Assembly (NCBI GenBank): GCA_016928755.1
Contig: JAFGKB010000065.1
Span: 1 to 20,564 of the forward strand
DNA from: Anaerolineae bacterium
Lineage (GTDB): Bacteria; Chloroflexota; Anaerolineae; B4-G1; SLSP01
DNA length: 20,564 nucleotides
Direction: 5' to 3'
In this document: positions 4,423 through 20,564 of the stretch, piece after piece
Layout: every line of letters begins with the position of its first letter
Numbering within the stretch: position 1 is the first letter of the stretch
The notes under the pieces: generated by a model
What the model was told of the DNA's origin: nothing
The model's input: only the letters and a program-made list of their open reading frames with translations
Databases searched by the model: none
Program-made: the position numbers and the translations under genes

Positions 4423-5727
4423 TTAATCTTGCGTTATTAAAACATTTGAGGAATTATCAGCACCACCAAAGTTACCGCCATCGGCTTGCAAGACATTGAT
4501 GATCTGCATCAAACTCTCGATTTGTTTAAACATCTCTTTTTGAACTTCAGGATCACGTTCGACCATCGAGCGCAACACATCGACAAAGCTAAGCACAATC
4601 AGTTGTGATGGAACTTCAACGCCATTATTGACCATATGCTGAACGTCTTTTAACATAGTCGTAACTAAATTCGCTTCAGCACTGATACGAGCCTGCATAA
4701 CTACATCCGTGTATTTTGCTTCACCCTCATTGACTTTACGGTCAGCATAACTCTGTAACTTAGCCTGCCAGAATTCCAGCCATTGGCGCGAGATCGCCTC
4801 TTCGGCAGGCATAATAGGCCCAAGTTGCACGCTCTCAACCTCAATTCCCAGGTTAGCCCCGGCTTTCTTGGCCGCCCCCTCAAGCTGTACCTCAAGTGAA
4901 CCTAAAGTCTGTGGCTCAAGTTCCCTTTCCGGTTGCCCCTCTTCAGACCAATACTGGGGATTCAACAACTGGTCAAGGCGGTACTGTTCAAGCAAGTCAC
5001 GAATATCACCATCTAACACGCCCCCAGATATACGCCCGGTCCAATCTTGGAAAACACCCTCCCCCTTGACCCGCTTAATAGTTGTAGCGGTCATAATTGC
5101 CTCTTCAGAGAAGGGATAGGGTACAGATTCCGTCGGTGGCTCTTCACCACTGCTAATCCGGAAACGGATATCGGCTTCACAATGAGCCGGGATACCATCA
5201 CGGGTCATAAATTCAACTTCAACGGTCCGTCGCTGGGGGCGCAGGTCGACAACTTCCCAAACCCGCTCAAAAGCCTCTAATTTATGGAACCCCGGTTTGA
5301 GGATCCGCTTGAGTTTACCAAACTGGGAAGTGACTACCGCGCTATCATGGCTCACACCAAGGAAACCCGGCCCACCCAATTTAAGCATCGTTGCCGGGCC
5401 ATCGGGGTCGGTGTGGCCTTCTCGCACACTTAAAACAGGACTAAACGGAGGTTGTTTCGGCAAGCCAAAGACAATACGATTGACCAGGTCCCAGGCATCA
5501 TCAAAAGACAAGTCATAAAAGCTCTGAGCAAACTGGATCAACACACCGATGGAAGCGGCAAAAGCCAGCCCCAGACTCATACCAAAAGCCATTACCAGTA
5601 TAAAGAAGGTCAACTGCCGCTCAGAATAGAGGCTAGGAAAACCAAAGAGCAGCAATACAGCAAAGACTAGGGTAAAGATAACAACACTCAGACCAATAAC
5701 AGTTCTCGCATTAATTTTGCCACTCAT
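4423..5727 (-). CDS. Membrane-anchored SPFH/band-7 (flotillin/stomatin-like) protein.
   Basis: The 434-aa ORF has two N-terminal hydrophobic helices. The next segment, 'KLGGPGFLGVSHDS...LKPGFHKLEAFERVWEVVDLRPQRRTVEVEFMTRDGIPAHCEADIRFRI', follows the SPFH core pattern (PGhh..hP...h..VDhR.Q.h......TKD.h.h.hd..h.aRI). The C-terminal part is Ala/Glu/Gln-rich and coiled-coil-like, as in flotillins. Confidence 0.7.
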   Translation of the reverse strand: MSGKINARTVIGLSVVIFTLVFAVLLLFGFPSLYSERQLTFFILVMAFGMSLGLAFAASIGVLIQFAQSFYDLSFDDAWDLVNRIVFGLPKQPPFSPVLSVREGHTDPDGPATMLKLGGPGFLGVSHDSAVVTSQFGKLKRILKPGFHKLEAFERVWEVVDLRPQRRTVEVEFMTRDGIPAHCEADIRFRISSGEEPPTESVPYPFSEEAIMTATTIKRVKGEGVFQDWTGRISGGVLDGDIRDLLEQYRLDQLLNPQYWSEEGQPERELEPQTLGSLEVQLEGAAKKAGANLGIEVESVQLGPIMPAEEAISRQWLEFWQAKLQSYADRKVNEGEAKYTDVVMQARISAEANLVTTMLKDVQHMVNNGVEVPSQLIVLSFVDVLRSMVERDPEVQKEMFKQIESLMQIINVLQADGGNFGGADNSSNVLITQD

Positions 5728-5729
5728 GC

Positions 5730-7280
5730 TTACCCCTCCTTTTCCTTCTTAGTTTCCGGCTCTCGTTTAGTTTCTTTAGCCTTTTTGCGCAGGTTAACAA
5801 GTGCCGGCAACGCCAATTCAGGCAGCAAAGGCCGGACCTCTGGACTACGGGCAATACTCTCTAACGAGTCCAGGAGGTGATAAGCTATCAGATTATGTGT
5901 CAGTTTGCCATCCGCATGCTGGAGCTGGGCACTGGTTTTCTCCAAGAGCTTGTGAACCAAATCAACCCGTGCCTTACTCTGCGCCTCGGCAAATGCCTTA
6001 AAGCGCTCAGCCTGAGTCTGAGCCTGCCATTCCATAATTTTCCCGGTCCAGCTCGCTTTCCAGGCTTCAATACGCTGCTCGGTAACGCCCTGATCAGTAG
6101 GATAAATCTTATTTCCCACCCCACCCCCAAGAACCTTAAAGCCTTTGGCTTCCAGAGTCTCTTTAACAACTTCTCGTACTGCCGCACCTAAATCGGCTCG
6201 GACGGGTTTCTCAGTATTGGGGTTAGCATACAAATGGTTCAGACTATACTGGGCAACCACCTTCTTAAGCTGTGGAATTGCAACCCTAAGAGGTAAGTCT
6301 AACCAGGGAAAGGCATCGTGAGCTTTCAGCGGTGTCTTGCCCTGGGGATTAACTTCGGCAGCAGAAAAAACTACTTTAAAAGCATCACTCTTCCGGTATG
6401 GCCAGGGCTGCCCTAATTGGATTTGCCCGTCACCGGGGTTAACCTGGAAGATAGATGAGATCGGCAAACTAACACTTATACCGTCTCGTGTGATAGCTTC
6501 TACTCGCTGCGCCCTTAATTGCGGGCGCAGGTCAAGGACAGAGTGTATTAAATCCCCACTCTCAGTAAAAATCACACCAGGACCATCAATCCGGCGAATA
6601 TCGGAAGAACCCTTGATTACGATTGCATTATGCGGCTCAGACATCACCCAACCGGGGCCAGACCCTAAGAAGGGATTCCCCTTGATGCGCGGCTCAGCTT
6701 TACCATCCACCACCATCCAGGTATTCTTGGGAAAGGTCGTGAAAAACCCAACGATTAGAGAAAGTGTTTTACGCAGCTTTCCTTCTTCCTCTGGGTCAAC
6801 AGGGATAATTAAAGATCCCCAAAGCACCAGGGCAAAAATAGCGCAGAGGGGCGGAAGTCCCATAAAAAGGAGATAGAGCAAAAGTTGCGCCACCGTAAAA
6901 TCGTAAAACATAAGCAAGACCCCGCCCAGACCCAAAGGGACCAAGACGCCCACCAGAAAGACCGCCGGAATAGAAACAGGGACTATCTTGGTCCACATAA
7001 TGAAGATTAGGAAAGGTACCAGGGGGATACAAATACTCAACAGCAAAACAGATAGCATATGAGACGGCAACACCCCAAGCCACAACAGACCGGGCAAGGG
7101 CCACAATAAAACACCCCACATGCCTAAAATTGCCGCCAGAGTACGCGAAAGCGGGTCAACAAATTTTTTCTTAGGCGCAGGAGGTTTTTTAATGGTGTTC
7201 ATAAAAATATACACAGCACCCGTCATATAGATAATGAATATTAGCAAACGTAGCAACATACTACCTCCTCCCCACAGCAA
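5730..7280 (-). CDS. Polytopic membrane protein with a C-terminal SPFH/band-7 domain, a paralogue of the downstream gene.
   Basis: The 516-aa ORF has about six predicted TM helices in the first 170 aa. It then reads 'IDGPGVIFTESGDLIHSVLDLRPQLRAQRVEAITRDGISVSLPISSIFQV', an SPFH-like core that also matches 'GPGF...VVDLRPQ' in the 4423-5727 product. The tail is coiled-coil-like and ends with a Lys/Glu-rich C-terminus. RBS GGAGGAGG lies 7-14 nt upstream (7283-7295 on the minus strand). The stop is 2 nt from the next start. Confidence 0.65.
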   Translation of the reverse strand: MLWGGGSMLLRLLIFIIYMTGAVYIFMNTIKKPPAPKKKFVDPLSRTLAAILGMWGVLLWPLPGLLWLGVLPSHMLSVLLLSICIPLVPFLIFIMWTKIVPVSIPAVFLVGVLVPLGLGGVLLMFYDFTVAQLLLYLLFMGLPPLCAIFALVLWGSLIIPVDPEEEGKLRKTLSLIVGFFTTFPKNTWMVVDGKAEPRIKGNPFLGSGPGWVMSEPHNAIVIKGSSDIRRIDGPGVIFTESGDLIHSVLDLRPQLRAQRVEAITRDGISVSLPISSIFQVNPGDGQIQLGQPWPYRKSDAFKVVFSAAEVNPQGKTPLKAHDAFPWLDLPLRVAIPQLKKVVAQYSLNHLYANPNTEKPVRADLGAAVREVVKETLEAKGFKVLGGGVGNKIYPTDQGVTEQRIEAWKASWTGKIMEWQAQTQAERFKAFAEAQSKARVDLVHKLLEKTSAQLQHADGKLTHNLIAYHLLDSLESIARSPEVRPLLPELALPALVNLRKKAKETKREPETKKEKEG

Positions 7281-7344: not shown

Positions 7345-10300
7345 CTATCCCCCTTTTATAATCAAGGGCAGATATACGACATGTGGTATTTGTAATACAT
7401 TCCCAGCAAAGATATTATTGGTCTCGATAGCTTCTTCAATCATACCAAAGGGTTTACCAAAGGGCGGATCCGCACCAAACCAGGTTACATCGGCCTGTCC
7501 ATAAGTGCGATACGTGCCAGCACCGGGGGCATAACCATCACAAGAATATTCTCGCGACTCCCCGGCCTCTAATGACGTTATCCAAGCGATACAGATACTA
7601 CCATAATGATCACCGACACTGGATGGCGGGGTATTACTCCCCTCTTTGAGATAAGCCTCAACAATTGCTATATAACCAGTATCCCCGTTCCAGTTGCGGT
7701 CAACTGCCATATTACCCTGATTTTCAATGGTGATATAAGCCCATAATGGCTCATTAGCAATGGGGGCAGATGGCTCCCAGCGTACATTGGTGATGACCAA
7801 ATCCGGGGCGATAAAGTAATCGTGATCTTCATCCTGATTGTCCGTCATGTCACTTTCTGCACTCTCCTGCCCGGTTACATACCCCATACTGACCGTATTC
7901 AACACCGACCTTACAGTATCCGTGGGAATAGATGAAGCGAGTTGAATACCAAAGGTCACAGAACGCGAAGCCCCTACGGCTAATGGCACGTTATCAACAA
8001 AGACAAAAACACCATCAGACACCTCTGTCCAGTCCTCCCATGCCAGCGGTGTGACATAGAGACGCGGGGTTATCGTATCGGTAAGTACCACACTCTCCAA
8101 CGGCAAATCAGAGGCTGAAGTATTGGTATACCGGATTGTGTAGTTCAAGGTCATACCAGGGTCTAACCACACCACACCGTCATCTTTGGATACCTGGACT
8201 TCCACTTTAGAGAGTCCGGAAACATCAACACAGGCCGTCTCTTCAACCGGCGATTGTCCTGTTACCGCCACCGTATTGCAATAATCAGCACCATCCGGGG
8301 CCAAGCGGTCCACTTTCGCGCGGAACGTCAAGGTGCGGGATTCTTCGGCTCCGATATTAAACGGCTTCCAGACCACAACCTGCCGGTCACCGGACATAAA
8401 CGGGGTTTCCACATCAGAGGTAGGGGCGATAAAAGTGAAGTTTACCGGCAGCGTATCTGTCACACGCACATTTGAATAAGAGACGGAATCATTGTTTACC
8501 AGTTGGATAGAATACACAACCTCCTCACCGGCAGTAACATGGGTAGGCGTGACCGACTTACTGACCTGAATACCCGATACTTCCAAGGCATCTATATCCT
8601 GGTCACTGTTGTTAGAGGGGTCAACATCCACCGCGTTATCCAGGGTGATGAAACCAACATCAACCTGATTGATGATAGAACCCACCCCAGGTATTGATGG
8701 ATCAATACGCACCGGGAATTTCACAAAATCCGCTTTGCCGGCAGCCAAGGGAGTAGGATAAGCGATCACCCGCCGGTAACGTCCGGTGCCGATCTCCTGC
8801 CAGGCAGAGTCTAAAACCTGGACATAACGACCGGGATCAACCGTCTCGGTCAAGATAACACTCTGTAAACCGGAGCCACCGGCATAAGCATTCGTGTAAT
8901 GAATCGTATAGGTAATCCATTGACCGGGACTAACCAGGGTCTCGCCATCATCCTTACTCACCTGCACGTCAACTTTAGGCGTGGGCAAGACATCCACCGG
9001 AGCCAGCCCGCCGTGAAGTGGCATATCAAATTCCCCGACTTTCACCTGGACCTTATTAAGCCGGACCCCAGACGTTGCAAAAGGTGAGACCTGTGCCCGG
9101 AAGACAAGTTGAACGGTCTTGCCCGGTTCTAAAAGTACTGCGGGCCAAGCAACACCACCGGGGAATGCTGCACCACCGGGCGGCGAGAGCACCTTATCCA
9201 AAGAAATATCACTGGGTAACGTATCGGTTACCCGGACGGTGTAGTTGTCCATTATACCATCCATTAAACGCAGCGAGATAGTATAGACAACCTGATCCCC
9301 GGCACGTACCCGGTCCGGGGAAACGGTCTTGGTCACCGTCACAATCTCCCGGCCACTGATAAGGTCAACATCCTCAGCCGTATTATCACTATGCGATGCT
9401 TCTACAGCATCCTCGGCTAGAGTATAACCAATCTCGACCTTGTTACGAATGCCCAGGTAATCCATAGGAATACTTTCATCAAGCTGTATCTGGAACACGG
9501 TGCTGCCGGAATCACCGGCGACCAAAGGTGTGGTAATCGTGCGCGTATAGCGACCACCGCCTAGGGAATGCCATGCACTTTCCGGGGAGAGCACCGTGAG
9601 ATAATCAGCCGGGAATATGGTTTCGGTCAAAATGATGGTCTCAAAGGTCTTGGCCTCAAGAGATGCATTCGTGTAGTAAATCGTATACTCAAGGGCTTCA
9701 CCCTCAGAAACCCAATCCAGACCATTGCTCTTGGACACCTGAGCGTCAACCCGAGGTAACTCGGTGACTTCAACCCGGGCCAGGTTTTCAACAGGCGGCA
9801 ACACCACCTCGCCCATCTCAACCTGAACACTGTTAAAGTAATTACCACTGGCAATTTCACGATTGGAATGCGCCTTAAATAAAAGCTCTATCGTATCACC
9901 GGCCTGACCTTTAGGGCTAATTGACATCCCCTCACCCTCCCAGACCACAAGTTGTTGACCATCACGTTCCACAACAGAGCCGGGGAAAGGAGCACTAAGC
10001 CCCCCCACCAACGTGAAACCGGCAGGTAAGGTATCGGTCACAATCAAAGGATAGGTGGTATCGGTGTCATTTTCCAGAGTGATCCGGTAGATCACATCCT
10101 CACCGGCCATCACAGCTTGTGGGTCAACAGTCTTCGCCACTTCCACCTTCGGACGGCCCCGCACATTGACCGGGGCTGTGAAATCTGTAGCCGAAAGCTC
10201 TATCAGCCCCTGGCCCTCTTTCTCAGCCTGGCCGGCCAACTGACTCGGATACTCCCCACTGAACATATTCGCATCACTCTGCACCTTATACGTGATCAAA

Positions 10301-13300
10301 TAGCTAGCACCATCATCAATAGGGCCGGGGACCTCCCAGACAAGGTCGTTCGACTCGCCTGCCGGCGTTAGCCCTGCCGGTTGGCTAGTACTGACAAAGG
10401 AGAACCCGTTAGGAATGGTGTCCGTGAATACCAGATTAGATAATTCAGCCCCAGAACCATTATAAAGAGTAAGCGTGTAGGTCGTAGCCTCACCGGCATT
10501 AATGTATTCCGGGTCTACCACTTTAAAGAAACCAATACCCGGCACGACTTCCACCTTAGCGTCGTCGGTGTAGTTCTTGCTGTAATTAACATTCATCGTC
10601 GCCGAGGCTTCCCACGAATTCAAAGCATTCAAACTCAGCCAACCATGAGCACGCGCCGTGAAGACAATCTCAACTTGCTCTAGTGGCGATATAACATCGA
10701 ATTCCCATACAAGCGGGGATTCGCTCACCGGCTCGGGACCATCAATAACCCGCAGGTATTCCCAGGCCAAAACATTCCCGCCACCGGCATCTTTCTGAGG
10801 CAAAATATCGGTATATACAACATTGTAAGCCGGTGCCCCGGTGAGATTTGCCAGTTCTAAAGTATATTGCACCTCGCCAAATGGGCCTACACGTTGCGGG
10901 TCTGCCGGTTTGGAAACTTCAATCCCTTGATTCAAGACCAGGGGTTCAACCTTTTCATCACACGTCACCGGCAACTCGTCGGTAACGACGAATTTAGTAA
11001 CCTTGGGGATACATATCGTCTCGACATCATCCAGCGCCACAACCTGCGCGATAAATTCTTTCGAATAGGTCTCTTTATCGCCGGGTTTATCATAAGTAGG
11101 GGCCTGGAGCGTCAATGTAAAGGCCAAGGTCTCGCCGGGCGGGATCTCTAACCCCTCCCACATATAATAGATGCCATTTTCTGGGTTATCACTAGTGGTA
11201 TCCGGAGGCGGTTCACTGGAGAGAATCTCAAATGGCCCGGCATCCCCTTTCGCTTGGGCCGGGAACCACTGTAGGTCAACACCGGTAACACCGGCGTCAG
11301 GTTCAAAGCGATTATTACGTAACGACACTACAATTGAGAACACCTCACCTACGGCAACCGGATTGGGATAGGACTTTTGGAACAAAGACACATGGGGGAA
11401 CACACAAACAGGGGCCAGCTTAGTATTATAGGCACCACTCCCCCATACCCCGTTATCCAGCATCCCCAGTATATCACTGCCCCTTTGCTCAATCACACCA
11501 TCATCAGGCTCGGCCAGCATATCACACCATGTATGACCTAGCCCATATCCCGACATCGTTACCGGGAATGTATGGGTCCAAGAAGTCGCCCGGTTAGGCT
11601 CCAAACGGAATGGGGTGGGCAGTGTATATTCATACATGGTATCACCATCAGCCGGGTCTTTGAGACCCTTATAAGTATTGGAGGCCGAATCCGGTTTGTC
11701 CAATAAATCGGCAAATGCAGTCAAGGTAAACGGCAAACTGGGTGAAATATTATTTAACCATACCGTATATGTAACCATATCTCCCTGCACTACCTGTTCC
11801 GGCACCACCTTTTTATCATAGCCAATGGGAGGTGTAATATTAATCTTGACATTATTCGTACAAACAGAAGTCGCAGCATGGTAACCGTAGACATAGTTGG
11901 GAATTTGCTTGCCTGACATACCGGCGCGCACAAGGAAAGAGAACTCCACGTGCCCCCCTGGTGACAAAGTAGTAGAGAGCACATCATCCCAACGCAGGAA
12001 TGTCCCGGTTATCAAATTTCCACTCACAACAGGCTCCCCAGGGAAGCTAGATACCATCGCTTCATACTGAAAGAAGGCAGACAAAGCATCGGTTATCACC
12101 AAGGGAGGGTTGATAGGGGTATTCCCCTCATTATCAATTGAAATCGTATAAGTAATCAACTCGCCAAATATCTGCGTAGAAGGCTGAACCGTCTTCTTAA
12201 CCATAAGTTGCGGTGCAACATCAATAGGAGCCAATTCATTATCATCGTGCCCATCATAATAGGGCACAGGGAATTGTGGAGAATATGCAATCACCGAATT
12301 GGGGTACTCAAGAGGCTTACAACGGTCTTCGACCGGAGTCTGTGACGAAATAAAGACCTGGAAAACAGTGCTTATACTCTCATAAGCCCCCACAGGAATG
12401 CTTGACCATTGTACCAAGGTCCCGGTGATTTTTGTAGGAGTCAATATATCACCGGTCACCGGCCCAACATATGAAAAATGCAGGGGCAAGTGGTCCTCAA
12501 TAGTCACAATAGTGGTCTGGGATAAAGGATTATAATAAGTTAAGGTATAAGTAATCATACGATTAGGATAGGAAACATAGGGGTCTACAGGGGGTGATTC
12601 TGTTTGCACGGCTTTATCAACAGGACTTAAAATCTTCACATCATGGTCTTTGGCAAGTGTAGCCGGACGGAACATAACACCATCACAACTAACCCTGACA
12701 TTTTCTGCATCATTCTTCAGTTCGCCCCGTGTCTTAGGATTGTAAATTATATCTACCGGAACCCGTCCCACAAATGTGACGGTTAAAGTCTCCCCGGTCC
12801 CTAAAGTATAAGTACTGGGGAGGGTCCACTGAATTTCATAGGTAGCGGGTGTGTAAACCACCGACACATCGAGATTCGGATGGTCGCTATCATAAGCACC
12901 TGAAGAATCAGGGATATACTCCAGTACGCCATCGTAACCATCCGGCAGCGTATCTTTAACCACCACATGCCTGGCCGGCCAGACATCAGGACGGTCGGCC
13001 TCTTCCTGGGAAAGATTATCAATGACAATCGTATAAGTCACTAAACGCCCCACCCGGCACTGTTCATCCCCGGCACTCTCACCGAAGGCCTTCTTGGTGA
13101 CCTCCAATAACGGGGCTACAATCTGCGCGGAAAGCGGCTCAGAGGAAACGCTCTGTTGACCCCCTAAAGCAACACTTACAGAATTATCAACCGTGGAAGG
13201 GCCGATCTCTTTGTAAGAAAAACTAAAAGGATAATTATCATAACTTTTCAGAGAGGGTTGCACCGTTATCGGAACACGGAGCCAGAATTCAATCTCGACA

Positions 13301-13782
13301 CTTTGGCCTGCCGGCAATGTCTTGAGCCACCATGTAGCCTCGCCGTTGTAACCTACTTCGTCAACCGTTTGGATGGCTTGGGAGATCAGATTGCTAGGTT
13401 CTGCCACAAAACCCTCAAAAGCCGGCAAAACGCCATAGCCCCACAATTTATCATCAATCTCCGGCGTCAGATTTGTGACCCAGGTATCAAAGACTACTAC
13501 ACCATCCAGGTCTCCCCCGCTGGTATTGGTCACTAGCAGGGTATAGGTGAGGCGGTCTCCGGCAAACACCGAATCCTCCCCTTTTAAGCTTACTGCAACA
13601 GCATCCAATGGCGCAGCCGGCCCGCGCTCGGCTTGAGATACAGCCGCACTCAAGGGCCATGCCCCGGTAGCAAAACCATCCAAGGTTGCCAAACACATCC
13701 CGAGGGTCCCCACAGCTATTATAAAAGCGAACACCAACCGCCAGGATTGATGCATACCTTGAAACCTACTGAAGTGTTCCAT
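7345..13782 (-). CDS. Giant secreted cell-surface protein of 2145 aa with multiple DUF11 ('conserved repeat domain') modules and a C-terminal CARDB-like domain.
   Basis: An N-terminal signal/TM segment 'WRLVFAFIIAVGTLGMCLATLDGFA' is present. At least ten repeats show the DUF11 signature, a [LIV]xYT[IL]x[LIV]xNxx run followed about 10 residues later by VTDT[LI]P. Examples are 'VIYRITLENDTDTTYPLIVTDTLPAGFTLV', 'VVYSIQLVNNDSVSYSNVRVTDTLPVNFTFI', 'TTYTLTLYNGSGAELSNLVFTDTIPNGFSFV' and 'LNYTIRYTNTSASDLPLESVVLTDTITP'. The C-terminal 'LVITNVRWEPSAPIANEPLWAYITIENQGNMAV' is CARDB-like. RBS GGGGGAG lies 9 nt upstream of the ATG. Confidence 0.85.
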   Translation of the reverse strand: MEHFSRFQGMHQSWRLVFAFIIAVGTLGMCLATLDGFATGAWPLSAAVSQAERGPAAPLDAVAVSLKGEDSVFAGDRLTYTLLVTNTSGGDLDGVVVFDTWVTNLTPEIDDKLWGYGVLPAFEGFVAEPSNLISQAIQTVDEVGYNGEATWWLKTLPAGQSVEIEFWLRVPITVQPSLKSYDNYPFSFSYKEIGPSTVDNSVSVALGGQQSVSSEPLSAQIVAPLLEVTKKAFGESAGDEQCRVGRLVTYTIVIDNLSQEEADRPDVWPARHVVVKDTLPDGYDGVLEYIPDSSGAYDSDHPNLDVSVVYTPATYEIQWTLPSTYTLGTGETLTVTFVGRVPVDIIYNPKTRGELKNDAENVRVSCDGVMFRPATLAKDHDVKILSPVDKAVQTESPPVDPYVSYPNRMITYTLTYYNPLSQTTIVTIEDHLPLHFSYVGPVTGDILTPTKITGTLVQWSSIPVGAYESISTVFQVFISSQTPVEDRCKPLEYPNSVIAYSPQFPVPYYDGHDDNELAPIDVAPQLMVKKTVQPSTQIFGELITYTISIDNEGNTPINPPLVITDALSAFFQYEAMVSSFPGEPVVSGNLITGTFLRWDDVLSTTLSPGGHVEFSFLVRAGMSGKQIPNYVYGYHAATSVCTNNVKINITPPIGYDKKVVPEQVVQGDMVTYTVWLNNISPSLPFTLTAFADLLDKPDSASNTYKGLKDPADGDTMYEYTLPTPFRLEPNRATSWTHTFPVTMSGYGLGHTWCDMLAEPDDGVIEQRGSDILGMLDNGVWGSGAYNTKLAPVCVFPHVSLFQKSYPNPVAVGEVFSIVVSLRNNRFEPDAGVTGVDLQWFPAQAKGDAGPFEILSSEPPPDTTSDNPENGIYYMWEGLEIPPGETLAFTLTLQAPTYDKPGDKETYSKEFIAQVVALDDVETICIPKVTKFVVTDELPVTCDEKVEPLVLNQGIEVSKPADPQRVGPFGEVQYTLELANLTGAPAYNVVYTDILPQKDAGGGNVLAWEYLRVIDGPEPVSESPLVWEFDVISPLEQVEIVFTARAHGWLSLNALNSWEASATMNVNYSKNYTDDAKVEVVPGIGFFKVVDPEYINAGEATTYTLTLYNGSGAELSNLVFTDTIPNGFSFVSTSQPAGLTPAGESNDLVWEVPGPIDDGASYLITYKVQSDANMFSGEYPSQLAGQAEKEGQGLIELSATDFTAPVNVRGRPKVEVAKTVDPQAVMAGEDVIYRITLENDTDTTYPLIVTDTLPAGFTLVGGLSAPFPGSVVERDGQQLVVWEGEGMSISPKGQAGDTIELLFKAHSNREIASGNYFNSVQVEMGEVVLPPVENLARVEVTELPRVDAQVSKSNGLDWVSEGEALEYTIYYTNASLEAKTFETIILTETIFPADYLTVLSPESAWHSLGGGRYTRTITTPLVAGDSGSTVFQIQLDESIPMDYLGIRNKVEIGYTLAEDAVEASHSDNTAEDVDLISGREIVTVTKTVSPDRVRAGDQVVYTISLRLMDGIMDNYTVRVTDTLPSDISLDKVLSPPGGAAFPGGVAWPAVLLEPGKTVQLVFRAQVSPFATSGVRLNKVQVKVGEFDMPLHGGLAPVDVLPTPKVDVQVSKDDGETLVSPGQWITYTIHYTNAYAGGSGLQSVILTETVDPGRYVQVLDSAWQEIGTGRYRRVIAYPTPLAAGKADFVKFPVRIDPSIPGVGSIINQVDVGFITLDNAVDVDPSNNSDQDIDALEVSGIQVSKSVTPTHVTAGEEVVYSIQLVNNDSVSYSNVRVTDTLPVNFTFIAPTSDVETPFMSGDRQVVVWKPFNIGAEESRTLTFRAKVDRLAPDGADYCNTVAVTGQSPVEETACVDVSGLSKVEVQVSKDDGVVWLDPGMTLNYTIRYTNTSASDLPLESVVLTDTITPRLYVTPLAWEDWTEVSDGVFVFVDNVPLAVGASRSVTFGIQLASSIPTDTVRSVLNTVSMGYVTGQESAESDMTDNQDEDHDYFIAPDLVITNVRWEPSAPIANEPLWAYITIENQGNMAVDRNWNGDTGYIAIVEAYLKEGSNTPPSSVGDHYGSICIAWITSLEAGESREYSCDGYAPGAGTYRTYGQADVTWFGADPPFGKPFGMIEEAIETNNIFAGNVLQIPHVVYLPLIIKGG

Positions 13783-13814
13783 TTATGCTCCCCCACTATT
13801 TTAAATGATAACCC

Positions 13815-13841
13815 CCGCACCGGCCTATAAAACCGGTGCGG
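13815..13841. terminator. GC-rich hairpin with a perfect 9-bp stem (CCGCACCGG / CCGGTGCGG) and a 9-nt loop, lying between the LPXTG gene and the giant DUF11 gene. It may be a terminator or attenuator.
   Basis: The inverted repeat 13815-13823 / 13833-13841 was read directly. On the plus strand it is followed by the T-rich run 'TTCCTATTT'. On the minus strand, which is the one transcribed here, it is followed by 'GGGGTTATCATTT'. It is the only strong secondary structure in the 101-bp spacer. Confidence 0.35.
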
Positions 13842-13883
13842 TTCCTATTTACACAACAAAAGGGCGCCACCAATTGTCAATAC

Positions 13884-14768
13884 CTAATGTAATGGTCCCT
13901 GTCCCGATTCCTGCCGGCGACGCACCCAAGCCACCCCGATCATAACCATAGCTAGACCAATACCCAAAGCCGCAAATCCCAAACCCAATCCGGTCTTAGG
14001 TAAAATACCGGTTTGCTCGGCACCGGTATCTGAGGCACCCTCCACAGCACCACCTGCTCCCATCTGACTTGCGCCAACTCCGGAGGCGGCACCGGTGTCT
14101 GCAGCGGCGGCACCGGTGGCCGTAGCACTTGCCCCAACATCGCTTGTGCCAGAGCCATCAACCGGCGTGGAAGTGGGAGCAATCACACCACCATCACCGC
14201 GTGTTGGTGTAGCAGGTGGACCGGGCAACGGTGGAGATGTAGGCTGTGGTTGGTCCGGGTCATCCGGTTCATCTGGCTCAGTCGTCGGGGGCGGCGGAGT
14301 CTCGCTTGTTGGGGGCGGCGTAGTTGGCGGCGCTGTTGTCGGGGGTGGTGTCGTTGGTGGTGCAGTTGTTGGCGGAGGCGTTGTCGGCGGTGCCGTTGTC
14401 GGTGGTGGCGTAGTGGGCGGTGCCGTTGTCGGTGGTGGCGTAGTGGGCGGCGCAGTGGTTGGTGGCGGCGTGGTTGGCGGCGGTGTAGTCGGAGGGGGTG
14501 TAGTGGGTGGTGCTGTGGTTGGCGGAGGCGTTGTCGGAGGCGCAGTTGTAGGTGGTGGCGTAGTTGGTGGAGCAGTTGTCGGCGGAGGCGTAGTCGGCGG
14601 AGGCGTAGTTGGTGGAGCAGTTGTTGGCGGGGGCGTAGTCGGAGGCGGTGTCGTCGGTTCTTGAGCGAAAACCTGGGGAACCGGCAACGCTCTTGTCCAT
14701 GCACCTAATGCCAATATAAACACTACCAGCAACGTAATCGTAATCCCAAGTAAACGTCGTATATTCAT
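13884..14768 (-). CDS. Sortase-anchored (LPKTG) Pro/Thr-rich repeat stalk protein with no globular domain.
   Basis: The 294-aa ORF has a signal peptide 'LLGITITLLVVFILALGAWT'. About 135 residues are (PTTPP/PTTAP)n repeats. A Gly/Ala/Ser/Thr-rich segment follows, then 'LPKTG', then the hydrophobic 'LGLGFAALGIGLAMVMIGVAWV', then 'RRRQ'. This last arrangement is the canonical LPXTG cell-wall sorting signal. RBS GGGAGGG lies 8 nt upstream. Confidence 0.8.
   Translation of the reverse strand: MNIRRLLGITITLLVVFILALGAWTRALPVPQVFAQEPTTPPPTTPPPTTAPPTTPPPTTPPPTTAPPTTPPPTTAPPTTPPPTTAPPTTPPPTTPPPTTPPPTTAPPTTPPPTTAPPTTPPPTTAPPTTPPPTTAPPTTPPPTTAPPTTPPPTSETPPPPTTEPDEPDDPDQPQPTSPPLPGPPATPTRGDGGVIAPTSTPVDGSGTSDVGASATATGAAAADTGAASGVGASQMGAGGAVEGASDTGAEQTGILPKTGLGLGFAALGIGLAMVMIGVAWVRRRQESGQGPLH
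14306..14655 (-). repeat. In-frame tandem repeat with a 15-nt unit (GGNGGNGGNGTNGTN on the plus strand) and a 30-nt super-period. It encodes (PTTPP/PTTAP)n.
   Basis: The near-identical units 'ggtggtggcgtagtgggcggtgccgttgtc' occur at 14401-14430 and 14431-14460 and continue on either side. The degenerate copies differ mainly at third codon positions and at the Pro/Ala codon. Confidence 0.85.
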
Positions 14769-14810
14769 TTTTCTACACCCTCCCTTACAACCGAGGAACC
14801 TTGATTATAT

Positions 14811-17800
14811 TTAAAAACGTATCACAACCGGCAGATAAATAGTTGAGATTAAGTATTGCTCGCAACCCATAAACTCCTCACTGCCATTATACCCACACAC
14901 TCGCCACGTGAAGGGGCCGGCAACCACGGCTTTAGGCTTAGATTCAGGCACATACATAGTGTTGTTAATCTCTTTGTAAAGCTGGTAATTAACCGAGAAG
15001 TTGTTATCCGAAGCCACTTCCAAATTATAGTAGGAGGCACCCGGTAAAACCGACCACCGGAAATAAGCGGTATCGGTAAACGAATCGGTACGCAACGGGA
15101 AGACTAAGCTTGGAACATCCGAACCTTTGGTAAAACGCCCCTCAGCATAATTATCCTGGCTCATATTTCCTGTGTCTGTGCCATCATACATGCGCACCCG
15201 CCAGACATAGTCACCATTAGGGATTGCGTCCTCAGGTACAAAAATATTATTCACCATCTCATCTTCACTGAAACTATACCCGCCCCCTTCTAGCTCAAAG
15301 TGGTACCGGGCAGCCCCTTGAACAGGAGACCAACTAAAAGTCGGGGTGCTCTTCACAAATTCGCCAGTAGACGGTGATAAATTGGTAGGAACCTGGGCAC
15401 GCTTGCTAAAACGAATCGCACGACTCCAATTAGATTCCAGTATATTCTTACTCCAACTAGATGTAATAGCCCAGGGATCAGGATACCGGCTCTGCAGACG
15501 CCAGAAGTAAACGTTATCCGCATAAACATCAGCTGTCAAATAATAAGGATTAGAATCCGAGAAGGACATAATCAATGGGATTTGACCATTAGGCTCCTCC
15601 CCCTCCTCAATTTGCGAAAAGGTATCATCAGTGCTGCTTTGGTAACGCACATTACGGATATCTTCCATTGTGTGCCAGGTCATCAATGGCATGCGAGGAT
15701 AAATAACTGTACGATCTTCCAAAAGGTGCATATTAGGCGGTGTCCGGGGTGTAGGGGCAGAGGTGACGGCAACATACCCGCGGTCCACCGTATCTATAAT
15801 CGTATCACTTGAAGCATCCACAGAAACCAGGTGGGCATTCACCGTAGCCGGGCTGCCAATCGCAGTCTGGGGTACGGCCAGCATCACAAAACCGGCGGTA
15901 TCACTGTAAATCTGGGTGGTGGTAAACACAGCATAACCAAGTTTATCTAAAAGTGATGCATAATCCCAATTTGCACCCAACTTGGAAAACAACGTCACAG
16001 TGGGCATGCCACTGGCGCCGAACATATCCCACTGTAAAACATTCTCAGGGCGATAAGGATCTCCCGTATCAGGTAAAGCGTTTCCATCAGGATAAGGCGA
16101 ACTATCCATACCGCTATTATGTGCCCCATCCGTATCCAGATAAAGCTGAAACCGCACGGGACTACCGCTTTGCCGGATGGCCCAACCAAAATACCAATAG
16201 CTGTTGTCCATCGCAGTATACAACGCGGTCAAATCATAGCCATTATGTCCAGAATGGTCCCCTAATAAGTCAGCAGTTAATAACGCCTCCTGGCTAAACG
16301 GCTGATTTAACTTCTGTTCCGCATCACTATAAATAGGTTCCGGCGAGAATTGGCGTACCAGGGAGAAATAATACGACCAACTCCACCCATCCCCGCTTCC
16401 CATCGGTTCATTAATACTGTTAAGCGCGCGTACCCGCCAGTAGTAAGTATCAGGGGGATAACGCTTAACAGGAGTATAGTTAGTTAACTCAGTAGCGGTT
16501 GTCTCAACTACAGAATCTCCAAAATCTGAAGACGTAGCGATCTGTACCTCATAATGATCTACGCCGTTAACCGGCACCCATTCCAGGTGGGGGAAGTGTT
16601 CCAATATCTGTTGGCCGTAAATCAAACCATCGCCCTCCTGTTGGCAGGTCGGCTGAACTAATCCAGGCGGCGCAACAGTAGGCGTATAAACATAACGGTT
16701 CTGGTCAATACGGGTCTGCCAAATCTGGCTCCAGGCCCCGTCCCCGGCATTCACCCGCCAATAGTAGATACCCGGATCACTAAAAGGTTCCAGTGAGGTC
16801 GGTGTCGCGCTGAGATTCTCGGTGGTCAACTCCCAGGCAACCGGGGAGAAAAATTTATTATCCGCAACCTGCACAGTATACGTCATCGCTCCCTGGATCT
16901 GGTTCCACATAAAGGTCGGTATTGCTGCAGTTCGGTCTTCCCACCTTAACGTGGTCGGCAAGACAACCGATTGCCCCGGTTCAAGATTGCTATACAGCGG
17001 ATCATAGTAGAATTCGGGATACAACAGATCAGGGGCTACGGCATAAGGGATTCCGGGATAAGAAGGATGGGTCGCTTTCTCCGGGCGGAAAGAGGCACTG
17101 GCATTGGGGGATTCATTATTCCATTCACCGGCTACCTCATAATAGTTAACGGCACGCACCCGCCAGAAGATCTGATTTAAACTTGTAAGATAGTCCCAAT
17201 CACCATCTGATTTCAACTCTTTAACAAGAAAACCAGTATTAATTATATCATCAAAAAAGCCTAAAACATTGGAACTAGGATCCTGTTGGAATGATGAAGT
17301 CTGGTTCATTTCCAACACATAATAGGCAACACCCTCAACCGGGGTCCAGCTAAAATAAGCACTGTTGATATGGTCCTCATTATTCACCGGTGTCAAGGGC
17401 AAAGGACGGCGGTCATTCCCTGCACCTAGCTTACTATCCAGGTTACAGGACCAGCAATAGCTAAATTTACGGCCATTGCCACCATTACTCCAGGGGCCAG
17501 AACGGGTCAGTGCATCCCGCAGATTACTACTATGTACAGCCCGCACCCGCCAATAGATAGTATCATCATTAGGTAATTTATAATCTCGCGCCGCTCCTGT
17601 AGATAGAGCAAAAGCCGTATTCCGGGGTTCATAAGTGTAAGTAAAGCCCGGCCAGCTTGGGTCATCAGGGAAATCAGGGTCAGAGCTGACCTGTAGAATA
17701 TAATATTCCGCGCCATCCACAGCCGTCCATTTTAGAAGTGGCGGCTTATAGAGTACGGCATCCTCTTCTGGCTGAACCAGGTTAGGCGCAATCCCCCAGT

Positions 17801-18260
17801 GGCGCGTAAAGGTCCACCAAGTAGACCAATTCCCCCAGCTTCCCTCTTCATAACTATAGGCCCGTACCCGCCAATAGTAGGTCTGCCCATCTTTAATGCC
17901 CTGACTGGTACGCTCAAAGTCATGGGCGGTGGGACAATACTTAGTCTGCTCAATCTGGTTCATATCCAAGACCAGCGCCGTATCCTGGGGCACTTCAGAA
18001 ATCTGCAATTGGTAACGCCGGGCCGCCGGCACCTCTAACCACTGAAAACACGGAATGCCCAGGGGTCGGCAAAGTAACCGGCTAGAATCCGGGTCTTTAG
18101 GATTCCCGGTCGTCTCGGTTTTATCAAGGGGCTGTAGTAATTGAGGGGCAGGTAACGTATCAGGCGCAAGCGGCGCCGACAGCACATTAGCAGGTACTAA
18201 TAGTGTAATCAGGAGACAGATAGTGACAAGACTAAGAGTACCCCAAACCTTATAACTCAT
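14811..18260 (-). CDS. Large secreted multi-FN3-like repeat protein of about 1150 aa.
   Basis: The signal peptide is 'WGTLSLVTICLLITLLVPANVLSA'. The likely true start is the second ATG at 18260, which has GGAGG 8 nt upstream. The maximal ORF start is 18278. Eight spaced FN3-type C-terminal strand motifs are present: 'YYWRVRAYSYEEGSWGNWS', 'IYWRVRAVHSS', 'IFWRVRAVNYYEVAGEWNNES', 'YYWRVNAGDGAWSQIW', 'YYWRVRALNS..GDGWSWS', 'YFWRLQSRY', 'YVWRVRMYDGTD' and 'FTWRVCGYNGSEEF'. A central region of about 200 aa, 'YWYFGWAIRQSG...RFQLYLDTDG', is unassigned. Confidence 0.8.
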   Translation of the reverse strand: MSYKVWGTLSLVTICLLITLLVPANVLSAPLAPDTLPAPQLLQPLDKTETTGNPKDPDSSRLLCRPLGIPCFQWLEVPAARRYQLQISEVPQDTALVLDMNQIEQTKYCPTAHDFERTSQGIKDGQTYYWRVRAYSYEEGSWGNWSTWWTFTRHWGIAPNLVQPEEDAVLYKPPLLKWTAVDGAEYYILQVSSDPDFPDDPSWPGFTYTYEPRNTAFALSTGAARDYKLPNDDTIYWRVRAVHSSNLRDALTRSGPWSNGGNGRKFSYCWSCNLDSKLGAGNDRRPLPLTPVNNEDHINSAYFSWTPVEGVAYYVLEMNQTSSFQQDPSSNVLGFFDDIINTGFLVKELKSDGDWDYLTSLNQIFWRVRAVNYYEVAGEWNNESPNASASFRPEKATHPSYPGIPYAVAPDLLYPEFYYDPLYSNLEPGQSVVLPTTLRWEDRTAAIPTFMWNQIQGAMTYTVQVADNKFFSPVAWELTTENLSATPTSLEPFSDPGIYYWRVNAGDGAWSQIWQTRIDQNRYVYTPTVAPPGLVQPTCQQEGDGLIYGQQILEHFPHLEWVPVNGVDHYEVQIATSSDFGDSVVETTATELTNYTPVKRYPPDTYYWRVRALNSINEPMGSGDGWSWSYYFSLVRQFSPEPIYSDAEQKLNQPFSQEALLTADLLGDHSGHNGYDLTALYTAMDNSYWYFGWAIRQSGSPVRFQLYLDTDGAHNSGMDSSPYPDGNALPDTGDPYRPENVLQWDMFGASGMPTVTLFSKLGANWDYASLLDKLGYAVFTTTQIYSDTAGFVMLAVPQTAIGSPATVNAHLVSVDASSDTIIDTVDRGYVAVTSAPTPRTPPNMHLLEDRTVIYPRMPLMTWHTMEDIRNVRYQSSTDDTFSQIEEGEEPNGQIPLIMSFSDSNPYYLTADVYADNVYFWRLQSRYPDPWAITSSWSKNILESNWSRAIRFSKRAQVPTNLSPSTGEFVKSTPTFSWSPVQGAARYHFELEGGGYSFSEDEMVNNIFVPEDAIPNGDYVWRVRMYDGTDTGNMSQDNYAEGRFTKGSDVPSLVFPLRTDSFTDTAYFRWSVLPGASYYNLEVASDNNFSVNYQLYKEINNTMYVPESKPKAVVAGPFTWRVCGYNGSEEFMGCEQYLISTIYLPVVIRF

Positions 18261-18370
18261 CAGAAGAACCTCCGCCATAACATATTTCTCATCTTCTTAA
18301 TAGGATTTTAAAGGAAAAATTTCCCATTCACAATTTAAGAATATCACTGAGATGATAAGGTTAAAGTCAC

Positions 18371-18557: not shown

Positions 18558-20084
18558 ATGCGTTTTCCACGCTCAGCCGGCATTTTATTACACCCAACCT
18601 CCTTGCCTGGAGGTTATGGAATTGGAGAACTCGGGGAACAAGCCTACCGCTTTATAGATTTCCTGGTTGAAAGCGGGCAATCCCTCTGGCAAGTATTGCC
18701 CTTAGGCCCCACTGGTTACGCGGACTCACCTTATGCCTGTTTTTCTGCATTTGCAGGCAATCCATTACTCATCAACCTGAATTGGCTGGCCTCTGAAGGG
18801 GATATTGATCCCCAAGACCTGGAACAGGCCCCCCACTTTCCCAACGAGTATGTTGATTACGGACCTGTGATTAACTTCAAGATGGCCATCTTGCACCGTG
18901 CGGCACGGAAATTCCGCGCGGAGGCAACTAGCGAACGCCGAGAGAAATTTGAGGCGTTCTGCGAAGAGAACTCGGCCTGGCTAGATGATTATATCCTTTT
19001 TATGGCCCTCAAAGAGGCCCACGGCGGCGCGGTCTGGAACACCTGGGAATGGGAATTAGCAGCCCGTGATCCTGAGACATTAGCCGCATGGCACGAACGA
19101 CTCGACGAGAACATCTTCGCCCATCGCTATCTCCAATACCAATTCTTCCGCCAGTGGGATGAACTCAAGAAATACGCCAATGACAAAGGTGTTCAAATTG
19201 TGGGCGATATCCCGATCTTCGTTGCCTATGACAGCGCGGACGTATGGGCACACCCGGAGCTTTTCCATCTCGATGATGACTATCTCCCCACTATCGTGGC
19301 CGGGGTTCCACCGGATTACTTCAGTCCTACCGGCCAACTATGGGGCAACCCCCTATACTGTTGGGATAAGATGGCAGAGGGTAATTACGAGTGGTGGATT
19401 GCGCGCCTTAGCCAATGTTTACAAATGGTGGATATAGTGCGCCTGGACCACTTCAGAGGTTTTGCCGCCTATTGGGAAATTCCGGCCGGTGAACCCACCG
19501 CAGTTAACGGCAAGTGGAAAGAAGGCCCTGGAGCACCTCTGTTCACAGCAATTAGAGATGCCTTGGGCGAACTCCCCATCATCGCCGAAGACCTGGGCCA
19601 CATCACAGAAGACGTAGAAGAGTTGCGCGACCAGTTCAAATTCCCCGGGATGAAGATTCTGCAGTTTGCGTTTACAACCGATGCGACAAACCCCTATCTC
19701 CCCCATAATTGCGAACCTAACTGCGTTATTTACACCGGGACCCATGACAATGACACAACTTTAGGTTGGTTTGAGAGTCGCGAAGAAGAAGAAAAGCTAA
19801 AGGCATGGCGATATCTGGGACCCATTAGCGAATCTATAAACTGGGCCTTAATCCGCATGGCTTATAGGTCAGTGGTGGATATAGCCATAGCGCCATTACA
19901 GGACGTGCTCGGACTGGGCAACAGTGCCCGGATGAACACACCGGGGAATGCAAGCGGCAACTGGAGTTGGCGCTTCACCGAGAATATGCTACGTGAGGAA
20001 ATCAGCAGTAAGCTAATGGAAATGGCCCTTACTTATGGGCGCAAAGAACCCGAAGAACCGGAAAGCCGTCCATCCTGGATGTAG
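18558..20084 (+). CDS. malQ: 4-alpha-glucanotransferase (amylomaltase, GH77).
   Basis: The 508-aa ORF starts 'MRFPRSAGILLHPTSLPGGYGIGELG...FLVESGQSLWQVLPLGPTGYADSPYACFSAFAGNPLLI'. This is the characteristic GH77 MalQ N-terminus. 'VRLDHFRGF' and 'GDIPIFVAYDSADVW' are conserved catalytic-region motifs. Confidence 0.95.
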   Translation: MRFPRSAGILLHPTSLPGGYGIGELGEQAYRFIDFLVESGQSLWQVLPLGPTGYADSPYACFSAFAGNPLLINLNWLASEGDIDPQDLEQAPHFPNEYVDYGPVINFKMAILHRAARKFRAEATSERREKFEAFCEENSAWLDDYILFMALKEAHGGAVWNTWEWELAARDPETLAAWHERLDENIFAHRYLQYQFFRQWDELKKYANDKGVQIVGDIPIFVAYDSADVWAHPELFHLDDDYLPTIVAGVPPDYFSPTGQLWGNPLYCWDKMAEGNYEWWIARLSQCLQMVDIVRLDHFRGFAAYWEIPAGEPTAVNGKWKEGPGAPLFTAIRDALGELPIIAEDLGHITEDVEELRDQFKFPGMKILQFAFTTDATNPYLPHNCEPNCVIYTGTHDNDTTLGWFESREEEEKLKAWRYLGPISESINWALIRMAYRSVVDIAIAPLQDVLGLGNSARMNTPGNASGNWSWRFTENMLREEISSKLMEMALTYGRKEPEEPESRPSWM

Positions 20085-20210: not shown

Positions 20211-20564
20211 TTATCTTTGGTCATACAACCATCTATAGTGGGCAAAGTGCTCCGTAATGCGCTCCACATAGGTCCGGGTCTCGTTAAACGTAATCAACTC
20301 GACAAAGAGGTCTATATCCTCCTGGGCCGCCTCACGCCACCGGGCAGCATTGCCCGGACCGCCATTATAACCGGCCATTGCAGCATATAAATCACCGTCA
20401 AACCGGTCACGCTGTTTTGCCAGGTACCAGGTCCCATAACGTACACTGACCATCGGGCGATACAAATCAGGGGTCTCATAATCCGGCGGCCATCCCAACG
20501 CCTGGAAAATCTCCGCTCCAGTCGGCGGGATCACCTGCATTAAGCCTTGGGCCGCAGCATAAGA
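20211..20564 (-). CDS. Lytic transglycosylase (SLT domain, GH23). Only the C-terminal part is in the window, and the gene runs off the right edge.
   Basis: The frame stays open to the window end. The translation '...SYAAAQGLMQVIPPTGAEI...YAAMAGYNGGPGNAARW...ITFNETRTYVERITEHFAHYRWLY' matches the Slt70 catalytic-domain motifs (AGAxGLMQxMPxTA, AAYNAGPGRVxxW, IPFSETRGYVKxVLxYxxYY). Confidence 0.85.
   Translation of the reverse strand, partial: SYAAAQGLMQVIPPTGAEIFQALGWPPDYETPDLYRPMVSVRYGTWYLAKQRDRFDGDLYAAMAGYNGGPGNAARWREAAQEDIDLFVELITFNETRTYVERITEHFAHYRWLYDQR

Follow-up and report, generated by a model that had tools for sequence, protein, structure and literature searches.

What is the function of a short C-terminal tail that two otherwise unrelated giant surface proteins have in common? 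This question is raised by a stretch of 20,564 nucleotides (hereafter the window) from a metagenome-assembled genome (MAG) of an Anaerolineae bacterium of the phylum Chloroflexota (assembly GCA_016928755.1, contig JAFGKB010000065.1, positions 1 to 20,564 of the forward strand), in which a giant protein with many DUF11 domains and a second giant of FN3/Ig-like repeats both end in [VI]YLP[LV][IV]I[KR]. The original prediction, made from the letters of the window alone, proposed that this tail might be an unrecognised C-terminal sorting or processing tag or, alternatively, a packing motif. Here, we report that both tails are YLP boxes, an ultrashort C-terminal tag that is largely confined to Chloroflexota and is found on Sec-exported surface proteins of unrelated architectures. 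The box is specific in its position, nearly restricted to one phylum, carried by proteins with a signal peptide and portable among domain families, and it stands in the slot that is occupied by anchors in homologues. It is probably recognised after export by a factor of the envelope, leading to retention at the cell surface and possibly to cleavage.

Results

Two unrelated giants end in the same eight residues

The giants, their boxes and their export signals are located in the window as follows.

7345..13782, minus strand: carrier 1, DUF11/CLIPPER giant of 2145 amino acids (aa), a fibrillar-adhesin-like surface protein according to Pfam and NCBIfam scans
14811..18278, minus strand: carrier 2, secreted FN3/Ig-like repeat protein of 1155 aa (the NCBI call starts at Met7, giving 1149 aa)
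7354..7377, minus strand: V-Y-L-P-L-I-I-K, the YLP box of carrier 1, which GG (7348-7353) separates from the stop codon (7345-7347)
14817..14840, minus strand: I-Y-L-P-V-V-I-R, the YLP box of carrier 2, which F (14814-14816) separates from the stop codon (14811-14813)
13681..13743, minus strand: hydrophobic core of the signal peptide or signal anchor of carrier 1, WRLVFAFIIAVGTLGMCLATL, read from the translation
18174..18245, minus strand: hydrophobic core of the signal peptide of carrier 2, WGTLSLVTICLLITLLVPANVLSA, with the likely cleavage site directly after it, read from the translation

The translation of the DUF11/CLIPPER giant terminates in NVLQIPHVVYLPLIIKGG, i.e., VVYLPLIIKGG before the stop codon, and that of the FN3/Ig-like giant in CEQYLISTIYLPVVIRF, i.e., TIYLPVVIRF, exactly as had been predicted. 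The shared tail is eight residues long in both proteins and lies at the extreme C-terminus, with two residues between the basic residue of the box and the stop codon in the DUF11 giant and one residue in the FN3-like giant. Throughout all six frames of the window, the pattern LP[LIVM]3[KR] occurs twice, and both occurrences are the C-termini of the giants. Outside the tail, the two proteins are unrelated, as the original prediction had held (BLASTP of one giant against the other yields no significant similarity; best E 0.22). A repeat at the DNA level as the source of the common tail was ruled out: the tail DNAs have only TATCTGCC in common and their codons differ, so the likeness exists at the level of protein. 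Given the amino-acid composition of the proteins in the window, at least two of ten would carry [YF][LIVM]P[LIVM]3[KR] at most three residues from the C-terminus with a probability of approximately 1.6e-9.

Both carriers have the features of exported proteins with extracellular domains (CLIPPER/DUF11, CARDB, Ig/FN3-like). The DUF11 giant is composed of many DUF11 (now CLIPPER) domains together with DUF7507 (CLIPPER_2), DUF7927, DUF7933 and DUF7619, i.e., a stack of isopeptide-type stalk modules, and it also matches the isopeptide-forming fimbrial domain TIGR04226; its last domain is CARDB-like and is followed by the YLP box. In fibrillar adhesins, CLIPPER domains form stalk modules that are cross-linked by isopeptide bonds (PMC12617251). 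In the second giant, FN3/Ig-like modules bearing a '...YYWRVRA' signature are repeated, and a pair of cysteines directly precedes the tail. The name FN3, which had been given to this protein from the beginning, holds for some of its homologues, which carry fn3 domains, but in the window giant itself the Pfam match is weak (PF25788, Ig_Rha78A_N) and below the cut-off. At their N-termini, both giants display a basic n-region and then a hydrophobic stretch of about 20 residues, which is typical of Sec export when judged by eye.

Both tails belong to a curated but little described family

When the last 32-34 residues of each giant are scanned in isolation, both tails match the NCBIfam model NF053834 ('ultrashort_CTERM') with 13.2 bits for the DUF11 giant and 16.4 bits for the FN3-like giant at a cut-off of 10, and narrowly miss the model NF050076 ('sort_motif_YLP') with 12.9 and 14.8 bits, respectively, at a cut-off of 15. 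The two models, of 10 and 11 positions, are both described in NCBIfam release 20 as 'YLP-box putative sorting motif-containing protein', and the window tails align to model positions 2/3-10/11. Other Chloroflexota carriers match both models at 13-21 bits; on NF050076, undoubted carriers from this phylum score 13.5-21 bits and thus straddle its cut-off. The window tails share with these entries the Y-L-P...R/K core, the extreme C-terminal location and the Chloroflexota host, and the particularities of the first tail (K, then GG) and of the second (V at the first hydrophobic position) are nothing different in kind. The NCBIfam entry itself names no taxon; the usage by Chloroflexota emerges from the survey described below. 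Both tails are therefore members of the known YLP-box family that are left unflagged in annotation, and the motif is neither new nor, contrary to what had been proposed, unrecognised.

On NF053834, a C-terminal fragment of 99 aa reaches 14.6 bits when taken from the FN3-like giant and gives no match when taken from the DUF11 giant, and whole-protein scans of the giants with Pfam and NCBIfam found nothing at the C-termini. We attribute the failure of the full-length giants to match to the HMMER filters, which discard such short matches in long sequences. Because the curated models miss the full-length giants, the public label remains uninformative (the NCBI record of the FN3-like giant reads 'hypothetical protein JW981_02025'), and long YLP-box carriers are probably missed systematically in public annotation. 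Existing knowledge of the motif seems limited to the library entry, i.e., a name without a mechanism; a literature search on the Chloroflexota envelope or sortase found nothing relevant.

The box is C-terminal and nearly restricted to Chloroflexota

To survey position and taxon, public sequence collections were scanned with the pattern TACCTGCCGCTGNTNNTNMGN, which stands for YLPL-h-h-[R/S], and for each in-frame hit we recorded how far away the next stop codon is and how long the open frame upstream is. The codons for YLPL are fixed in this pattern, which biases the sample to GC-rich genomes and to R-ending boxes. The scan of species-representative genomes yielded at least 120 loci, and records were assigned to Chloroflexota by title (Anaerolineae, Thermoflexia, Chloroflexia/Chloroflexaceae and unclassified Chloroflexota). 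Among the matches listed, a stop codon lies at most five residues away in 31 of 43 Chloroflexota coding hits and in one of 46 coding hits from elsewhere, while none of the 14 hits in long open frames of viral contigs is C-terminal; compared with all others including the viral hits (1/60), the Chloroflexota proportion differs with p = 2e-15 (Fisher). A codon-independent regular expression applied to open reading frames (ORFs) of at least 100 aa gives the same picture, with 34 C-terminal and 8 internal occurrences in the Chloroflexota loci versus 1 and 32 outside this phylum. At position -1, which the search pattern leaves free, 29 of 32 carriers have V, L or I, in agreement with V-YLP and I-YLP in the window, and six more tails written with other codons adjoin the seed genes.

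The one clear C-terminal box outside Chloroflexota-labelled records, among the matches listed, belongs to a 1294-aa RCC1-repeat protein with a signal peptide that ends in ...TWIYLPLLMR (L097:571-4455, minus strand), from a MAG labelled 'uncultured Acidobacteria'. Mis-binning or horizontal transfer could account for this occurrence, as could a wider distribution of the box.

The carriers elsewhere resemble those of the window in their mode of export and in the variety of their domains. A Sec-type N-terminus is present in about 18 of 20 complete carriers, and the exceptions resemble start-codon or assembly problems. The 35 carriers cover 45 Pfam families, all of them extracellular module types, which include DUF11/CLIPPER, beta-helix, CARDB, PKD, PPC, RCC1 propellers, C25 and M14 peptidases and Big_3. 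Carrier genes tend to cluster, with three each in two loci (L078 and L111) and two each in three others (L084, L098 and L113), and the window is clustered likewise. The motif had been expected to lose its significance if it were to end no other secreted protein in this or related genomes; instead, many Chloroflexota proteins with Sec-type N-termini end in the box.

At the small end of the range, a secreted family of 108 aa consists of a signal peptide and a Gly-rich core with 'LGTGY.LTW.TVDGGG' and then ...YLPLVLRN at the C-terminus. Members are found at L171:7320-7646 (plus strand) and L173:5756-6082 (minus strand), and as tails in L137 and L074, in Thermoflexia and Anaerolineae MAGs. These proteins are minimal YLP-box carriers and would be handy experimental substrates.

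The box has the anatomy of a short linear motif

From 149 pooled tails, we derived the consensus [KR]-[VIL]-[YF]-L-P-[LV]-[VI]-[LIVM]-[RK], in which basic residues flank the box at -2 and +7. Between the last basic residue and the stop codon lie 0-5 variable residues, often beginning with N or Q, and up to 8 trailing residues are tolerated. The hydrophobic run after the proline comprises three residues in 81% of these tails and two in 17%, i.e., two to three in 98%. Both window tails have three, and five to six residues in total separate the proline from the stop codon. With only two to three hydrophobic residues after the proline, the tag is too short for a membrane span, which the original prediction had correctly noted.

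The box is maintained although its surroundings change. In the closest homologues, the box is kept while the preceding linker varies in length, and a homologue that is 51% identical to the FN3-like giant has it as IYLPVVLRG despite a four-residue indel directly upstream. Two homologues of the DUF11 giant (P0074 and P0129) have two tandem YLP-type boxes near the C-terminus, e.g., ...VFLPILLKHTAHILAKEAERPNQLFLPVVVKEPAK, an indication that the box can be duplicated and is read as a linear motif. Variable trailing residues and tandem boxes fit a linear recognition or cleavage motif better than a fixed C-terminal register.

Upstream of the box, the homologues display two recurrent contexts, each followed by 10-15 residues before the box: a CARDB-like '...FGLI.EA.E.NN...' and 'Y.YWL.EVE..G....YGP', of which the FN3-like family has its own version, 'YYWRVA..D..G..GP...IILDPYPY.I'. 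Close FN3-like relatives of the window protein also have the cysteine pair directly upstream of the tail (VCGYNG....MGCE). Structure prediction of the C-terminal regions was of low confidence (mean pLDDT 47 and 40 for the two giants).

Homologues carry established anchors in place of the box

With its last 600 aa as the query, the DUF11 giant retrieved 5,405 homologues in an exhaustive HMMER search. An indexed homologue search returned no match for the last 171 aa of this giant and one match for the last 229 aa of the FN3-like giant, and homologues of the latter were obtained with the full-length query. Among the best 150 of the 5,405 DUF11-giant homologues, 36 end in a strict YLP box and 51 in one by a looser definition, including 12 of the 12 closest; other ends are LPXTG/LAXTG with a helix and RRR, IPTL-like tails and domains of the type IX secretion system (T9SS) type. 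Several of these score above the curated cut-offs: LPXTG_anchor in P0052 and P0023, IPTL_CTERM in P0050, and the T9SS type B domain in P0019, P0058 and P0137.

The FN3-like family behaves similarly. Among the matches listed, about 70 of 120 homologues end in a YLP-type box and about a dozen more in near-variants, and all taxon-labelled NCBI names with a YLP-type end are Anaerolineae, Chloroflexi or Caldilineaceae. Homologues from Bacteroidota and Ignavibacteria have T9SS C-terminal domains (CTDs) instead, and two homologues have SLH domains. By the classical argument, a slot that is filled by established sorting or anchoring modules in other lineages points to the same purpose for the YLP box. 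Together with the C-terminal position, the restriction to one phylum, the Sec N-termini and the varied architectures, this anchor swapping supports the predicted role of the tail as a C-terminal sorting or processing tag on secreted proteins.

Neighbouring genes do not reveal a conserved system

The two giants sit in a long co-directional run of minus-strand genes and enclose a third surface protein gene:

13884..14768, minus strand: LPKTG sortase-type substrate of 294 aa between the giants, with ILPKTG, a hydrophobic helix and RRRQ

Lacking a globular domain, this protein begins with its signal peptide and goes on with PTTPPPTTA repeats over about 160 aa (TRF period 30/45, 14306-14642), after which a G/A/D-rich stretch leads to the anchor. 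It would be a bare stalk spanning the wall, encoded between two adhesin genes. Its C-terminus scores 15.2 bits on LPXTG_anchor (cut-off 15.9) and weakly matches both TIGR01167 and PF00746. As read from its translation, the gene shows that the host uses a classical sortase signal alongside the YLP box. It also causes a local reversal of the GC skew at 14-15 kb.

That the giants flank an LPXTG protein had been singled out in the original prediction. The adjacency is real, but its relevance to a YLP-box system is not borne out: no LPXTG-type protein adjoins YLP-box genes in 48 other Chloroflexota loci, and the gene order around two orthologues of the giants differs from that of the window, so that the synteny of FN3 giant, LPXTG protein, DUF11 giant and SPFH proteins is not conserved. 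In one orthologue neighbourhood there is a row of PMT_2 glycosyltransferases, and in the other a 4,621-aa beta-helix/CLIPPER giant. Because of these differences in gene order, we dropped the LPKTG stalk and the two SPFH proteins as candidate parts of the system and regard them as local neighbours.

The SPFH proteins are encoded directly downstream of the DUF11 giant (4423-7280, minus strand) as two paralogous-looking membrane proteins, each with a multi-helix hydrophobic N-terminus and a divergent SPFH/Band_7 domain. After this pair follows a 322-aa protein (3445-4413, minus strand) with weak TPR matches and 'SM...GDMLLVEV' in its C-terminus, which by eye resembles LexA/S24-type peptidases, a likeness that is backed by no model match. 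Further along (41-2415, minus strand), a type III CRISPR RAMP protein (Cmr1-like, TIGR01894/PF03787) overlaps by four bases with an AAA_15/AAA_21 ATPase that resembles the ATPases of defence systems; TRF found no CRISPR array and Rfam no RNA family in the window. At the other end, a divergently oriented 4-alpha-glucanotransferase gene (18558-20084) precedes the gene of a TPR-rich soluble lytic transglycosylase (SLT-type; 20211-20564, minus strand), which runs off the right end of the window and continues in L001:5791-7458. A search for sequence extending the contig past the window yielded only shorter Logan contigs from the same sample. In the orthologous locus L184:13944-23519, the FN3-like orthologue P0158 is followed by at least four membrane glycosyltransferases of the PMT_2 family (GT-C, protein-mannosyltransferase-like), a row that could serve the glycosylation of surface proteins in these bacteria.

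Discussion

Comparison with known C-terminal signals

The YLP box resembles several known sorting signals in its usage and differs from all of them in its build. Like LPXTG signals (TIGR01167, PF00746), it is a C-terminal tag on Sec-exported adhesins with an L-P dipeptide and a basic end, and homologues with DUF11 stalks carry LPXTG at the position of the box. However, LPXTG signals extend over about 35 residues, in which the pentapeptide is followed by a transmembrane helix of about 20 residues and a basic tail, which together keep the substrate within the membrane for sortase, whereas the YLP box has two to three hydrophobic residues after the proline, no membrane span and no T-G. Correspondingly, the LPXTG (or LAXTG/NPXTG) pentapeptide is absent from the window tails, which read LPLII and LPVVI, a transmembrane helix with a charged tail after the motif is absent from both, and neither TIGR01167 nor PF00746 matches them at E <= 10.

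With PEP-CTERM/exosortase, PGF-CTERM/archaeosortase, GlyGly-CTERM/rhombosortase, IPTL-CTERM and MYXO-CTERM, the box shares its lineage specificity and its many paralogous carriers per genome, as well as the succession of a signature motif, hydrophobic residues and basic residues and the mutual exclusion with other anchors in homologues (IPTL-CTERM in P0050). Each of these tripartite domains spans the membrane with a full helix and has an intramembrane sorting enzyme, either identified or proposed; in comparison, the YLP box looks like a miniature layout of motif, three hydrophobic residues and one basic residue. The models of PEP-CTERM, PGF-CTERM, GlyGly-CTERM and IPTL-CTERM do not match the window tails, which have no membrane-spanning helix with a basic cluster.

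T9SS CTDs (TIGR04183 for type A and TIGR04131 for type B) are found at the same position in Bacteroidota and Ignavibacteria homologues of both giants; they likewise lack a transmembrane helix, and the T9SS removes them after export during surface attachment. They differ in being folded beta-sandwiches of 70-100 residues that are recognised, in diderm bacteria, by the PorU sortase and a translocon of the outer membrane; the YLP box, by contrast, is a linear motif of eight residues, and neither model matches the last 171 aa of the DUF11 giant or the last 99 aa of either giant. That very short C-terminal motifs can be sufficient for a processing enzyme or a sorting receptor is illustrated by the four-residue CAAX box and KDEL of eukaryotes. 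These are unrelated in sequence, compartment and organism and have a fixed C-terminal register, in contrast to the 0-8 trailing residues of the YLP box, so this comparison extends only to the possible mode of action.

A plausible mechanism of surface retention

From the combination of position, taxon, export and anchor swapping, we infer that YLP-box proteins are probably retained at the surface. In the mechanism that we propose, the protein would be exported by Sec, and a dedicated envelope factor, encoded elsewhere in the genome, would read its exposed tail, too short to reside in the membrane, as a short linear motif and would hold the giant adhesin-like proteins on the cell surface. As the preferred but tentative sub-mechanism, for which we judge the odds to be less than even, we infer a covalent cleavage and transfer: the protein might be cleaved at or directly after the box, which would remove the variable last residues, and the new C-terminus might be transferred to an acceptor in the envelope, following a sortase-like logic with a different enzyme. 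We lean towards this sub-mechanism because the stalks are built to bear force, because neither the number nor the type of the residues after the basic position is constrained, and because most of the swapped modules are covalent anchors.

Several observations weigh against such a reading. None of the characterised covalent sorting signals resembles eight residues without an element of membrane retention. Neither a recognising factor nor a Pfam family present in more than two of 100 genes neighbouring the carriers was found, the sortase signature TLxTC is absent from 1,374 ORFs of the carrier loci, and the unconserved gene order around the orthologues gives no lead. The structure predictions are too poor to tell a free tail from a packed one. 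In the curated library, both tails fall just under the stricter cut-off of NF050076, and the giants at full length (1155 aa and 2145 aa) match neither YLP-box model. Finally, a literature search on the YLP-box name, the model accessions and the tail peptides found no paper or experiments.

Alternative explanations

The main rival is a non-covalent docking peptide, in which the uncleaved box binds an envelope receptor (an S-layer or sheath protein, a cell-wall polymer or a membrane protein), for example by beta-strand addition, and holds the protein reversibly at the surface. The positional, taxonomic and anchor-swapping evidence fits docking as well as it fits covalent attachment; moreover, the box is very short and beta-strand-like with alternating hydrophobics between basic residues, the SLH domain, a non-covalent wall anchor, stands at the equivalent position in some homologues, and no transpeptidase-like gene is found among the carrier neighbours. 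However, a peptide of eight residues offers little binding energy to hold a 2,000-residue adhesin under load, and the force-resisting, isopeptide-cross-linked stalks argue for a strong and probably covalent anchor, while the variable distance of 0-8 residues to the free carboxyl end excludes recognition of the C-terminus in the manner of PDZ domains. We regard docking as unlikely, while giving it more weight than any other alternative. An improbable explanation is a C-terminal signal that does not anchor at all, serving a second export step across an outer layer or acting as a quality-control or processing tag for a C-terminal protease. The T9SS CTDs that replace the box in Bacteroidota and Ignavibacteria homologues are export signals first and attachment signals second, and the tail, hydrophobic and ssrA-like, is similar to tags that proteases are known to recognise. 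Against this stand the Sec signals that the carriers already have and the nature of most swapped modules, which are anchors (LPXTG, IPTL-CTERM, SLH); Chloroflexota are generally described as lacking a classical outer membrane, and it would hardly make sense to mark dozens of giant, costly structural proteins for degradation.

It is very improbable that the box is a degenerate sortase signal (LP-x-x-x for LPXTG) that is processed by the sortase of the neighbouring LPKTG protein. The invariant L-P dipeptide and the basic residue at the end would suit such an origin, and the bona fide LPKTG substrate between the carriers implies that the host presumably has a sortase. Yet the box lacks T-G, a transmembrane helix and a charged cytoplasmic tail, the LPXTG models do not match it and NCBI curates it as a separate motif, and LPXTG proteins are not neighbours of YLP-box genes in other loci. 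The LPKTG protein, in turn, retains a full canonical signal in the same genome, which indicates that the two signals are kept distinct. Most remote of all is a chance resemblance or a last structural strand of the final domain without any sorting role. The initial observation did consist of two sequences only, and a short hydrophobic box resembles many terminal beta-strands, but the probability estimated from the window's composition already refutes chance, and both the restriction to one phylum and the independent curation by NCBI speak against it. The idea of a packing motif finds no support either, as the box ends unrelated last folds (CARDB, beta-helix, PKD, RCC1, peptidases, FN3-like), with linkers of varying length between the last domain and the box.

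Implications for surface display in Chloroflexota

Since the motif is already part of a curated annotation library, its detection here is a rediscovery of modest importance. The largest and probably most important carriers, the giant adhesins, nevertheless stay 'hypothetical protein', which would be remedied by scanning the last ~30 residues of each protein. Chloroflexota are a major environmental phylum with an atypical envelope, and the YLP box is a very short candidate tag for surface display. It might, though we advance this with reserve, represent a mechanistically new class of protein-sorting system and serve as its substrate signal; it would then be the first C-terminal anchoring signal of prokaryotes that has neither a membrane-spanning segment nor a folded domain, and its reader would be a largely Chloroflexota-specific post-export enzyme, unrelated to sortases, exosortases, rhombosortases and PorU, that attaches giant adhesins to the envelope. 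Our data make a testable case that the YLP box is the main anchoring signal of Chloroflexota surface proteins.

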